Notes under the pieces: model-generated
What the model saw: the letters and a program-made list of their open reading frames with translations, nothing else
Told to the model about the DNA's origin: nothing
Databases searched by the model: none
Program-made: the position numbers and the translations under genes
Shown: positions 16,151 to 40,823 of the stretch, piece after piece
Numbering within the stretch: position 1 is the first letter of the stretch
Layout: each line of letters starts with the position of its first letter
From: a virus
Lineage: Duplodnaviria; Heunggongvirae; Uroviricota; Caudoviricetes
IMG/VR virus record: IMGVR_UViG_2859810971_000007
Strand: one strand, 5' to 3'
Length of the DNA stretch: 64,000 nucleotides

Positions 16151-16897
16151 CTACTTAACAACCCTCGAATGGCTAACATTCGGACGCCAGCTCTCCCAGT
16201 TAAAATTCACCCAGCGCCCGCCGTTCATGACCATGCGATCCATCACCCGCTCGCCGAGCAATGTTTTCATCACCTCATAGTTCAGGTTTGTCAGCATCCC
16301 CACGCTACGCATCGACGCTGTCCGGCGATCAACAATCTGGTGCAGCACCACCTGCTCGTTTTTCGTCTCGCGCTGAATGCCAATTTCATCAAGAACCAGC
16401 AGATCCACTTCGCACAGCTCCCGCAAAAATTTTTCGCCTGACTGCCCGTCGTCATAGCTGGCGTGCAGGGCGCTCATAACATCAGCCACGGTAACCACAA
16501 TCACTGTCTGACCGTCTTTCAGCAGGCGATTCCCGATAGCTGCCGCTAAGTGATTCTACCCGGTATCAGGTTTTCCGCTGAACGCAAAATTTGTACACCC
16601 GGTCATCAGTTCATCGGCGATGGATTTCGCCTGGCTTAACGCGTATCGCTGGCCGTCGTTCTGCACCTGGTAATTCGCAAACGAGCATTTACGGTGCAAC
16701 GGCTGGATGCCTGAGCGATTCAGAATTTTTTCCACCCGCAACTGGCGATTCAGGCGGTTGATCTCCTCGCTACGTTTCTGGCCTTCAGCAAGTTGCCACT
16801 CGCGCCACTCCGCTACCGTTCTGAATGGGGCGGTTACATGTGGCGGGGTCAGTCGGCGGATGCGTTCCAGAACGCCGCCTGTCGCAATATTTTTCAT
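16151..16897 (-). pseudogene. DnaC-like helicase loader with in-frame amber codon
   Basis: Colinear with E. coli DnaC; single frame reads FSGKPDTG-TAG-NHLAAAI; TAG at 16556-16558 sits where the Walker A lysine is expected. Confidence 0.7.
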
Positions 16898-16903
16898 GGT
16901 CCG

Positions 16904-17674
16904 TTACCCCCTGAAGCCTGGCGGGATCGCACTGTCCGGCAACGAGACGGTGTTAACCTGTCGGAGCAACGTCTCAGGCCGAACACCTTTCGGCGCGAAC
17001 AGGCCCTGGTATTCATTGGCGATGCTGTGTCGAATCACCTGCTCAGGTGTAAAACCCTGCTGACGGAATTTTTCCAGTTCCCGTATCGCCCTGCTCCGTT
17101 CGAATCGGTTTTCGCAATGCCTGTCTGAACCGGACCCACTCATGCCAGAGTGTTTCCGGCAACCAATCGGGCAGCTCAATAGCCTCCGGCTCGAATTTTT
17201 TAGACGCTCGTTTTTGGCGAGGGGATTTAGGGGGAGATCAGTATTTAGATCTTCCTCTTCCACTGGTAACGCTTTTTGATCCGTTTGTGTAACGCTGGCA
17301 GCGTTACCTTTTCGTTTCAGTTCGCGTATTTTTGTTACTCGCTCGTTTGTAACCGCCCGTTTTTTAGAGCTTTTTCCGTTATGACGTTCAAAGTTAGGTA
17401 GAGAAAGCCCACCGTCATTTTCGACCAGCCATCCAACCTGAATTAACGTATCAGCAAAACCAGACATAAAAGTGATGCGATCTATTGCACTTTTTGTAAC
17501 GCCGCGAGCGTTACAATCTGCATTACCGTCTATCATTTGTTGATCCGCCCATGCCCAGAAGCGAATAACCTTCCCTAATGCGGCATCTGGATCAATATTC
17601 AGAATCTCAGCAAGCCTGAATATTTCCGGCTTATCCGGCGTAATAACCTCGAGCTTTATCCAGTTTGAAGCCAT
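16904..17674 (-). CDS. Replication initiation protein (O-like / YdaU-like)
   Basis: 256 aa directly upstream of the DnaC-like gene; contains GTAACGC-N5-GCGTTAC palindromes in its 5' part. Confidence 0.45.
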   Translation of the reverse strand: MASNWIKLEVITPDKPEIFRLAEILNIDPDAALGKVIRFWAWADQQMIDGNADCNARGVTKSAIDRITFMSGFADTLIQVGWLVENDGGLSLPNFERHNGKSSKKRAVTNERVTKIRELKRKGNAASVTQTDQKALPVEEEDLNTDLPLNPLAKNERLKNSSRRLLSCPIGCRKHSGMSGSGSDRHCENRFERSRAIRELEKFRQQGFTPEQVIRHSIANEYQGLFAPKGVRPETLLRQVNTVSLPDSAIPPGFRG

Positions 17675-17751
17675 TTGTTTTCACCTTGTAACGCTCGCAG
17701 CGTTACATTTAACTGATACCGAACAAAACAATCCGGCACGATTAATTTCAA

Positions 17752-18174
17752 TCAATGCACTACGACAGAATCGCCGGGCGACCCACCACCGCTGAAATGT
17801 GCTTTCCGGTAAACGGCCTGGACAGCATCATCATGCGCATCAATTGCCGTACTCAACGCTTCCTGCGCCGCCAGTAATGCACGGCGTTCCAGGGTATCGA
17901 AGATACAGAGTCGGTGACGCAGCTCACGCGGAAGAATTGCCAGAACCGCAGGGATCAGTTTCTGAATTTTTTCCCTTTGCGCTTTCGTTTCACCTTTCAA
18001 CCAACGGTGATAGATATTCTGCTGATTGTTCCAGTCCTTGCCTGGTACCAGAGACAATTCGCCGCCCCCCTGCCGCAGATATTCTTCAGTAATTGCGTTA
18101 GCGACCCACGCCTGCCCTTTTTCGGCTGCCAGGGCTAACAGCACTGATTCGATGTGCTCATGCCTGATTTTCAT
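17752..18174 (-). CDS. ydaT: YdaT-like prophage protein
   Basis: 140 aa MKIRHEHIESVLLALAAEKGQAWVANAITEEYL... resembles Rac YdaT. Confidence 0.55.
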   Translation of the reverse strand: MKIRHEHIESVLLALAAEKGQAWVANAITEEYLRQGGGELSLVPGKDWNNQQNIYHRWLKGETKAQREKIQKLIPAVLAILPRELRHRLCIFDTLERRALLAAQEALSTAIDAHDDAVQAVYRKAHFSGGGSPGDSVVVH

Positions 18175-18385
18175 GAATCACCTTCCCAGGTCGTTTTGCC
18201 TTACGATATTCGTCATAAACTTTGGGGTCGTACTGAAGTTCCCCGCCAGATGCCTCTTGCAGGCGCATCGCGCGACCTTCAGGAACCAGTTCCCCCCATG
18301 CAGCAATGCTTGCCAGCCTAACTCCTGCGGCATTGGCAAGCTTTGTTTTGCTGCCAAAAAACGCTATAGCATCAATTTTCAACAT
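18158..18385 (-). CDS. ydaS: YdaS-like Cro-type HTH regulator
   Basis: 75 aa; divergent from racR-like gene; HTH segment. Confidence 0.55.
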   Translation of the reverse strand: MLKIDAIAFFGSKTKLANAAGVRLASIAAWGELVPEGRAMRLQEASGGELQYDPKVYDEYRKAKRPGKVIHENQA

Positions 18386-18461
18386 ATCGAGCTCCTTAGA
18401 TTTTCCTAAGGAAACTAGACCGTAGAGAAACCTAAGTCAAGAAAAATTAGAATTCCCTAAT

Positions 18462-38692: not shown

Positions 38693-39099
38693 AGCAAACA
38701 ATCTTCCTCCGAACTAAGCAACAACAGCAAGCCGCAATAAATGCCATCCTCTCAACTCCTCTCGATAAAGACAAGCCAGTCACCATCCGCATTACTGACT
38801 ACAAGCGAAATCTTGACCAGAACGCAAAATTTCACGCGATGCTGGCGGATATCGCTCGTCAGGTTCAATGGTGCGGCAAATGGTTAAAACCAGAACAATG
38901 GAAGGTTTTGTTGATCAGCGGTCATGCAGTGGCAACAAAACAGGAAGCTGATGTTTTGCCCGGCCTTGAAGGAGAATGCGTCAACATTCGCGAAAGCAGC
39001 GCGCAGATGAGCGTGAAGCGCATGGCAAGTCTGATCGAGTACACAACAGCCTGGGCTATTGGTCAGGGTGTCAGATTTACCGACAGGAGGTATGAATGA
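38689..39099 (+). CDS. ninB: NinB-like recombination protein
   Basis: 136 aa; ...[33 protein letters not shown] resembles lambda NinB. Confidence 0.7.
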
Positions 39100-39272
39100 G
39101 GCGACATCGACGAAGTTTCACCGACATCATCTGCGAAAACTGCAAATACCTTCCAACGAAACGCTCCAGAAATAAACGCAAGCCAATCCCAAAAGAATCT
39201 GACGTAAAAACCTTCAACTACACGGCTCACCTGTGGGATATCCGGTGGCTAAGACATCGTGCGAGGAAATGA
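39096..39272 (+). CDS. ninE: NinE-like protein
   Basis: 58 aa [52 protein letters not shown]; below ORF-track length cutoff. Confidence 0.65.
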
Positions 39273-39313
39273 CTATTTATCCGGTGCGCCGCCAGAATGA
39301 CGGCGCGGTGTGG

Positions 39314-39622
39314 TTAAACGAAGCGGATCTGGAGTTTTTTTCCAGTAGCGCGGGCGAATTTTTTTAGTGTGGCAAATGATGGGCCGCTGATACCTGATGC
39401 GAGATTACTTTCCATTCTGGTGATCGCGGTCGCTTTTGTTCCCATTCGCTCGGCAACTTCAGCCTGAGTTAAGCCAGCTTCTTTGCGTGCTGCCAGCATT
39501 TCATCAAGCAGTGCGAATTCGTCAGCGATAGCGTCGTATTCTGCTTTAAAAGCCGGGTCTTCCATCCATTTGGCTGCCATTTCGTCGTGTGTCATGGTGG
39601 GGAGAGTGCGTTTACCAGTCAT
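39314..39622 (-). CDS. HigA-like antitoxin (XRE HTH)
   Basis: 102 aa; HTH segment GLTQAEVAERMGTKATAITRMESN; overlaps toxin gene stop. Confidence 0.6.
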   Translation of the reverse strand: MTGKRTLPTMTHDEMAAKWMEDPAFKAEYDAIADEFALLDEMLAARKEAGLTQAEVAERMGTKATAITRMESNLASGISGPSFATLKKFARATGKKLQIRFV

Positions 39623-39941
39623 GCTTAACCTCCTTCATTCTGGTTTCAGCTTTCTTGCGTTCGGCTGGCGGTGTTTTCTGCGCTTTCTTTACAAAACTAT
39701 GCAGCATGATGATGCGTTTCCCTGTCAGAGTGCAGTAAAAAACACGCGCGATCCCATCGTTGCCTTTAATTCTGAGTTCGAAAAGCCCGTCACCAAAGGC
39801 GCTGGTGTGAGGTTCTCCGAGATTGCTGCCGTATACCTTCATGCGTTCAACAAGATGCTGGTATCTGGCACGCATACTCAATGGAAGCTGATCGACCTCC
39901 AGTCGGACCTCTTCACTGTAGTATTCGATAGTGTAGTTCAT
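39612..39941 (-). CDS. HigB/RelE-superfamily toxin (Gp49-like)
   Basis: 110 aa from MNYTIEYY; ...GDGLFELRIKGNDGIARVFYCTLTGKRIIMLHSFVKKAQKTP typical of Gp49/RelE-fold toxins; ORF-track N-terminal extension rejected. Confidence 0.55.
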   Translation of the reverse strand: MNYTIEYYSEEVRLEVDQLPLSMRARYQHLVERMKVYGSNLGEPHTSAFGDGLFELRIKGNDGIARVFYCTLTGKRIIMLHSFVKKAQKTPPAERKKAETRMKEVKHDW

Positions 39942-40259
39942 ACAGCAAAACATAACAAAATCGTTATATCTGCACAATATATTGATTCTGCAATTTCGGG
40001 ACGTTACACTATCTCTGCACCTTATAAAGCGGGGGCCGGGATTGGCGTCCTGAAATTCAATATAGAGCATAACCGCGCTCATGCGGTTTTTTCGTGTCAT
40101 GAGCATTGCTACGCCCAAATTATGGTGGGGCGTGCAGGGGCATCGCAAGATGCGCCGGGTTCTATGTTGACCGGTTACGCCAACCCTGTACGTCTCACCA
40201 CCTCTGTGATTGGCGTCCCATGTGGTGAGTTCTTTGAATTCAACATAGGGGCTGTCACC

Positions 40260-40823
40260 ATGACTACTCTCCCAACCCTCTCTCAACCTGAAATTGCCAT
40301 CGTTGATGGTTAGGCTGTTACTTCATCCCTGGCTGTTGCCAACTTCTTCTCTAAACGTCATGACGATGTTCTGAAAAAGATCCGCATTTTGGATTGTTCT
40401 CCAGAGTTTTGTGCCCGCAATTTTGCGGAGACATCAATTTTGGTACGCCAGCCCAACGGCGGTACTCGCAAACTTCCCTGCTACCAAATTACCCGCGACG
40501 GCTTCGCCTTCCTTGCTATGGGCTTCACTGGTAAACGTGCCGCCCGGTTCAAAGAGGCATACATCAATGCCTTTAACCAGATGGAGAGGAGCTTATCAGG
40601 AGCTGGTGCGGCTGACATGTCATCTGTCGCACAAAACGCCAGAGGCGTATACCTGCATTTGCGTGAAATCCATCAAATCTGGACAAGCCAGCTTTACCCA
40701 ATGCTTAAGGCCGTTGAATCTCCGCTGGCTGGCAAACTGTACGACCGTGTAGGTGATGCTGTTTTTGGTGCTGCACTTGTTGATTCCAGGCTGAATGGTT
40801 CTGACAAGGAGGTGCGCCCATGA
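40260..40823 (+). pseudogene. Rha-family phage regulatory protein with in-frame amber codon
   Basis: MTTLPTLSQPEIAIVDG-TAG-AVTSSLAVANFFSKRHDDVLKKIRILDCSPEF...FTGKRAARFKEAYINAFNQME; TAG at 40311-40313 inside the conserved N-terminal block. Confidence 0.55.

Follow-up and report, generated by a model that had tools for sequence, protein, structure and literature searches.

Four amber-interrupted genes in a Shigella flexneri chromosomal stretch with two defective prophages, read as ordinary nonsense pseudogenes

The DNA analyzed here is the 64,000-nucleotide viral record IMGVR_UViG_2859810971_000007 from IMG/VR (hereafter the window). Three genes in it, a DnaC-like helicase loader, ybhD and a Rha-like gene, had each been reported as interrupted by one in-frame TAG (amber) codon and, most simply, as nonsense pseudogenes. 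Our comparative analysis supports this reading: with a probability of about 90%, these are nonsense pseudogenes of the ordinary kind, which arose as genes continued to decay in a Shigella flexneri chromosome. The bases at 16556-16558, 27478-27480 and 40311-40313 were confirmed as TAG (the first two appear as CTA on the plus strand), and all three interrupted genes are real; the count itself has to be raised, because a phage portal gene on the minus strand holds a fourth TAG, at 4311-4313. Sense codons were found as the ancestral state at the sites, the TAGs recur in independent records, some of the genes carry second knock-outs, and no sign of suppression was seen in the window. The interrupted genes, given as open reading frames (ORFs) or remnants, and their lesions, including one insertion sequence (IS), are as follows.

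16151..16897, minus strand: prophage DnaC/IstB-like AAA+ helicase loader pseudogene, ydaV-like, 248 codons (orthologue comparison and Pfam)
16556..16558, minus strand: TAG for AAG at the Walker A Lys114 of the loader (orthologue alignment)
16565..16567, minus strand: GAT for GGT (G111D), likewise within Walker A (orthologue alignment)
27067..27627, minus strand: 3' remnant of ybhD, a LysR-type regulator, reference codons 132-317 (blastn against IAI39 ybhD)
27478..27480, minus strand: TAG for CAG at Gln181 of ybhD (orthologue comparison)
27628..28395, plus strand: IS1 in place of ybhH, ybhI and the 5' ends of ybhD and ybhJ (InsA/InsB ORFs)
39963..40823, plus strand: prophage regulator ORF with an Ash and a Rha domain; the E. 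coli homologues have 286 codons (protein comparison and Pfam)
40311..40313, plus strand: TAG for CAG at Gln117, between the Ash and Rha domains (orthologue alignment)
4248..5838, minus strand: lambda-family portal protein pseudogene (99.8% nucleotide identity to an E. coli reference; Pfam Phage_portal_2)
4311..4313, minus strand: TAG for CAG in the portal gene, absent from the original list (reference-based survey)

Along 20,342 bp the window shows 100% identity to CP026810.1. The 113-aa N-terminal fragment of the loader has exact matches in several complete genomes, including CP026810.1, CP037923 (S. flexneri 5a M90T) and CP026799 (S. flexneri NCTC 9728), the last two of which share the lesions with CP026810.1. 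CP026810.1 also contains ipaH and numerous IS copies. Judged from these matches and from the presence of an ipaH gene nearby, the window is a stretch of the Shigella flexneri chromosome (CP026810.1). Two defective lambdoid prophages are arranged on either side of the pgl-ybhD-ybhJ-ybhC region.

The loader is 99.6% identical to intact ydaV-like genes of E. coli. Only three of its 747 nucleotides differ from WP_000789009: one synonymous change, AAG to TAG at Lys114 and, three codons ahead of that stop, GGT to GAT (G111D). The stop had been placed at the expected Walker A lysine, and it falls exactly there, as the motif GKPGTGK of the orthologues reads GKPDTG* in the window copy (the asterisk denotes the stop). 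The ATPase domain is still recognized by Pfam (IstB_IS21, 66.9 bits against a cutoff of 24.1; also Bac_DnaA), yet the intact Walker A pattern GxxxxGK[ST] is lacking, and the stop removes the P-loop lysine together with the rest of the AAA+ domain. The loader is a dead member of the DnaC/IstB-like family. Of 89 loci from phages and metagenomes, 86 have the GGT/AAG haplotype and the other three GAT/TAG; no single-mutant allele, either G111D alone or K114* alone, was present among these 89 loci. Both changes occur together in all six independent S. flexneri records, including M90T and the Logan assembly of run ERR048273.

For ybhD, the original description of a gene otherwise open around a lone TAG was correct in part. 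As in the other genes, the frame is open and the flanks are conserved (orthologue ...HPLAKKQLVEWQ..., window ...HPLAKK*LVEWQ...), but codons 1-131 are also missing, up to the border of an IS1 element. In a blastn comparison with IAI39 ybhD only nucleotides 394-954 align, at 98.2% identity. The reference YbhD protein carries HTH_1 (6-64) and LysR_substrate (91-290) in one ORF. In the window HTH_1 has gone with codons 1-131 and the stop at 181 lies inside LysR_substrate, which leaves no complete LysR-type regulator. The TAG is shared by all ten records with an identical Pgl protein. The site is CAG in IAI39 and in all four hits of a genome scan (three Escherichia and one labelled S. flexneri SFBU0723), and TAG was not met in that scan. 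The IS1 is a 99.7% repeat of the copy at 63248-64000; ybhJ resumes at about residue 122 at position 28392, and the IS1 junction is common to relatives. Besides its lost 5' end, ybhJ (within 28392-30205) changes frame and has lost about 27 aa internally. In E. coli IAI39 an IS1 is found at a neighbouring position and ybhD is intact, a comparison which suggests an IS1 hotspot in the ybhD neighbourhood.

The Rha-like gene does possess the Rha domain ascribed to it, but is in fact an Ash-Rha two-domain ORF with the TAG at codon 117. It displays 98.9% protein identity to WP_001300485, and the orthologue context ...AIVDGQAVTSS... becomes ...AIVDG*AVTSS... in the window. Pfam assigns Phage_ASH to residues 15-109 and Phage_pRha (PF09669) to residues 120-209, with 93.3 bits for Rha in the reconstructed protein. 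The stop is located three codons ahead of the Rha domain, leaving a stand-alone Ash ORF with the whole Rha domain downstream. The first in-frame start past the TAG is a TTG at 40389, and its use would cost about 23 of the 91 Rha residues. The Rha domain is present in the DNA yet not translated within the ORF, and the product as it stands falls outside the family. TAG occupies the site in seven Shigella loci. CAG is found in three loci with an identical neighbouring protein, one of them from the S. flexneri 3a strain 888048 (CP066809), and also in two E. coli loci; the TAG is polymorphic within S. flexneri. Among 120 viral contigs the site is CAG in 119 and TAG in one. Ash-Rha is the only amber gene with no demonstrable second lesion. 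Its 5' end departs from the E. coli homologues before about 39980, and the original start codon is absent. A Gp49/HTH_3 (HigB/HigA-like) pair at about 39314-39875 on the minus strand lies upstream and partly overlaps the open frame 39483-40313 (plus strand) that leads into Ash-Rha.

The fourth amber stands in a gene that is also frameshifted. Upstream of the stop, an additional T in a run of five T at 4850 shifts the portal frame by +1, and the TAG then stands in the ancestral frame; both lesions are present in 9/9 independent assemblies. All six viral contigs examined and one reference have CAG at the site. The ancestral context GCC CAG GCG has become GCC TAG GCG, where the mutated base is the inner C of a CCAGG Dcm site. 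Taken together with the loader, ybhD and Rha comparisons, these data agree with the original expectation of AAG or CAG as the ancestral codon.

Two window-wide screens were used for premature stops. In the first, 159 intact coding sequences (CDSs) from seven E. coli reference loci were translated and compared with the window by tblastn; exactly four in-frame stops with conserved flanks were obtained, all of them TAG, with thin reference coverage at 33.9-36.8 kb and 59.6-63.4 kb. The second was an unbiased scan of 397 stops in six frames with at least 30 open codons on each side, in which the three TAGs listed originally were the only coding-frame cases where most homologues have a sense codon. 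No premature TAA or TGA was found by either screen of the window. Other candidates, among them TGA 21312-21314, TAA 21242-21244, TGA 14147-14149 and TAG 37988-37990, were rejected as lying in non-coding or antisense frames (an IS600 end, or opposite hok).

Two other explanations can be weighed directly on these comparisons. The TAGs might be sequencing or assembly errors of one record, as CP026810.1 is a single assembly and a homopolymer error could in principle explain the frameshift in the portal T run. However, the TAGs are substitutions rather than indels, and each recurs in six to ten independent assemblies, which cover several technologies and strains and include draft Illumina data; base-call error is therefore refuted and has practically no probability left. 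Alternatively, the proteins might naturally end or start at the stops and represent separate short genes, in line with gene callers that place ORFs of 113 and 108 aa in the loader and of 204 and 127 aa in Ash-Rha. Against this, each orthologue is one continuous ORF that has a sense codon where the window has the stop, and the alignments run through all sites; moreover, such a division would cut the Walker A motif in two and LysR_substrate at residue 181. Natural protein ends can be dismissed nearly as completely as sequencing error.

Whether an all-amber set is remarkable was evaluated with a model in which codons become stops by every possible single-base path; codon frequencies were taken from 52 non-redundant reference CDSs, 11,931 codons in all. 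TAG accounts for 40% of nonsense outcomes under uniform rates, for 44-50% if a GC-to-AT bias is added and the transition/transversion ratio is set to 2-4, and for 60% if only transitions are allowed, and the likeliest single nonsense path is CAG to TAG. Three of the four observed events are of this kind, being C-to-T transitions, and the AAG to TAG change in the loader is an A-to-T transversion. The probability that three of three stops are TAG is 0.06-0.12. The earlier remark that three ambers were notable thus holds only weakly, because TAG is the likeliest nonsense outcome and CAG to TAG the commonest path. Dcm context was considered as a general cause and rejected, since it fits one of the four sites, the portal; the ybhD (AAG CAG CTT) and Rha (GGT CAG GCT) sites have no such context. 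The all-amber run is roughly what codon usage and mutation bias predict, and probably does not reflect a recoding or suppression system. A run of ambers in an E. coli-like genome is expected from CAG-rich codon usage and C-to-T transitions, and provides no evidence for suppression or recoding.

The number of stops is also unexceptional. The annotation of S. flexneri M90T lists 769 pseudogenes, 166 of them with internal stops, from which about 2.2 are expected per 64 kb; the probability of at least three is 0.38, and of at least four 0.18. Decay through nonsense mutations, deletions and IS is described in the Shigella literature.

Several points weigh against ordinary decay, and they concern the uniformity of the stops, the reach of the suppressor search and the position of the loader changes. 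Four TAGs out of four are mildly improbable under the neutral models (P = 0.026-0.06), and agreement of four stops on any single type has a probability of 0.05-0.07, compared with 0.13-0.15 for three. The search for a suppressor covered the eight tRNAs of the window. In the loader, two of the three substitutions fall inside the eight-codon Walker A motif (P about 0.003, calculated post hoc), which hints at selection or a clustered mutation event instead of pure drift, for this gene only.

The uniformity of the stops is the main argument for a lineage with a natural amber suppressor (a supE- or supF-like tRNA allele) or a weak release factor 1 (RF1). Ambers would be tolerated there through partial read-through, which would account for a build-up of ambers only; neither screen revealed a TAA or TGA lesion. 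ARAGORN predicts eight tRNAs in two four-gene clusters, each composed of Met/Ile-CAT, Arg-TCT, Thr-TGT and Gly-TCC.

11568..11877, minus strand: prophage tRNA cluster with anticodons CAT, TCT, TGT and TCC (ARAGORN)
46613..46923, plus strand: the other prophage tRNA cluster, identical to the first in its four anticodons (ARAGORN)

None of the eight window tRNAs has a CTA (CUA) anticodon, as had been noted originally. Of 42 surveyed window genes, 22 end with TGA, 18 with TAA and two with TAG, a share of TAG close to ordinary E. coli terminator usage. This usual mix indicates that TAG probably still works as an ordinary, rare stop in the window. Read-through could rescue neither ybhD nor the portal gene, since the former lacks codons 1-131 through IS1 truncation and the latter is frameshifted, and the loader carries G111D in its P-loop in addition to its stop. 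All four genes reside in contexts without evident selection for function. A full-text literature search combining Shigella with amber suppressor yielded no account of Shigella with a natural amber suppressor. A review describes the use of engineered amber suppression in S. flexneri, which in our view implies that TAG normally terminates there. On this evidence a suppressor lineage is very improbable. Equally little weight is given to the wider proposal that an unrecognized suppressor tRNA, a weakened RF1 or a TAG-biased mutational process is present in the CP026810.1 clade. If one were, ambers would build up preferentially, and some pseudogenes, such as Ash-Rha, would give low-level full-length protein.

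The two tRNA clusters form a 98.5% inverted repeat (11567-11971, minus strand; 46519-46924, plus strand). The first tRNA of the cluster is called Met (CAT) by ARAGORN and tRNA-Ile by PGAP on homologous E. coli genes. We take this CAU tRNA to be read as Ile by lysidine modification.

The clustering in the loader raises another possibility, that loss of function was itself selected. A dead loader ATPase and a lost Rha anti-repressor domain would lock down the prophages against lethal in-situ replication or induction. In favour of this, G111D and K114* always occur as a pair, with no intermediate among the 89 loci; the Rha TAG is situated right where the Ash domain gives way to Rha, so that Ash remains as an ORF of its own; and the adjacent integrase and terminase genes are IS-truncated, so that the prophages would be unable to excise or package. 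On the other side, the calculation on the loader concerns three substitutions, and the two changes are 8 nucleotides apart (P about 0.07 for proximity alone), so the pair may be one clustered event as well as the outcome of selection against the ATPase. Moreover, the Rha TAG is polymorphic, the serotype 3a strain having CAG, and the portal and ybhD stops are found in genes with a second lesion. Selected inactivation is unlikely, though clearly less so than suppression. It bears on the cause of fixation and not on the nature of the features, and is compatible with ordinary pseudogenes.

Single-base substitutions have made TAG in four genes, three times from CAG and once from AAG. The portal change may be attributed to deamination of 5-methylcytosine at a Dcm-methylated CCAGG, which gives exactly C to T. 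The affected genes would have been freed from purifying selection. Defective prophages riddled with IS elements contain three; the remaining one, ybhD, is a presumably dispensable chromosomal LysR regulator. Neutral or near-neutral fixation by drift could then have followed in a host-restricted lineage of small effective population, a course known for Shigella in general. Translation is expected to end at each TAG, giving a loader without the P-loop lysine and everything after it, an Ash-Rha product without the Rha domain, and a YbhD product without the DNA-binding domain and half of the effector domain; the portal gene is already out of frame. The resulting fragments have probably lost their function.

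The surroundings of the four genes display decay of other kinds. In total, the window contains at least six frameshifts, at least ten IS copies and several IS-truncated genes. The features found in the survey and by self-comparison of the window are listed below.

About 46321-46345: frameshift in the Q antiterminator gene (survey)
About 50212: frameshift in a hypothetical gene (survey)
About 54895: frameshift in a head-morphogenesis gene (survey)
About 57062: frameshift in a Gp24-like gene (survey)
34181-38339, plus strand: large Toprim primase gene, whose product has 968 aa in a related strain and contains an embedded intein-like LAGLIDADG segment; split by a frameshift at about 35650-35698 and an IS3-family insertion
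About 36809-38013: IS3-family element in the primase gene (survey)
8229-9312, 21261-22524, 32706-33969, 41457-42720 and 58329-59592: five IS600 copies (self-comparison)
19663-20993 and 51304-52633: two IS2 copies (self-comparison)
27628-28395 and 63248-64000: two IS1 copies (self-comparison)
23323-25149, minus strand: intact ipaH-type effector gene (LRR_TTSS and NEL, about 603-608 aa), next to pgl at the edge of a decayed prophage

IS insertion or truncation affects the small terminase, holin, integrase, LvrA-like, large terminase and primase genes as well as ybhD/ybhJ, and in-frame deletions are present in the DUF2213 gene and ybhJ. Compared with a 99.6%-identical E. coli prophage, the morphogenesis genes of the second prophage (50212, 54895, 55477-56589 and 57062) have several frameshifts, and the DUF2213 gene has lost about 35 aa in frame. 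The OrfB variant of one IS600 copy is unique to its locus, and the shared IS600 OrfA matched mostly large E. coli genomes, e.g. CP027351, and no S. flexneri locus. The virulence cargo ipaH is retained while the phage genes decay. In the region 59658-63422, short ORFs resembling Mu-like or Ner-like DNA-binding proteins were noticed by eye. Inspection of the same kind revealed a possible 100-aa C-terminal remnant of a DpiA/CitB-type response regulator at 61451-61753 and a long putative transporter ORF on the minus strand at 61794-63422, abutting IS1.

The findings matter mainly for annotation, in which the four genes deserve the label of pseudogenes; at present gene callers split them into pairs of short ORFs. 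Wider interest would arise only if TAG were in excess across the genome or if a suppressor tRNA turned up elsewhere in it.

Among known systems, amber-suppressor backgrounds such as E. coli supE44/glnV44 and supF, where amber alleles stay functional, are similar in having several genes with a lone in-frame TAG. They differ from the window, which has no CUA tRNA, two genes with non-suppressible lesions, and ambers placed in dispensable prophage and accessory genes of a wild pathogen lineage. Coulondre and Miller reportedly traced the classic lacI amber hotspots to 5-methylcytosine deamination at CCAGG. The portal site GCC-CAG-GCG resembles such Dcm hotspots, the inner C of CCAGG being the first base of the CAG codon, but it is the only Dcm site of the four: ybhD and Rha lack the motif, and in the loader an A became T, a transversion. 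The gene decay of Shigella, a group of host-restricted E. coli lineages, matches without substantive difference: the organism is the same, the lesion classes are the same (nonsense mutations, frameshifts, IS insertion and IS-mediated deletion), and the density of stops fits the 166 internal-stop pseudogenes of M90T, while the finding of ambers only among four local stops reflects the small sample. The defective or 'grounded' lambdoid prophages of enterobacteria correspond equally well, again with no substantive difference, in that replication, regulatory and morphogenesis genes are dead by point mutations and IS while ipaH and the tRNA genes are intact. The phenomenon is already known as Shigella pseudogenization combined with the decay of defective prophages, and is nothing new in kind.

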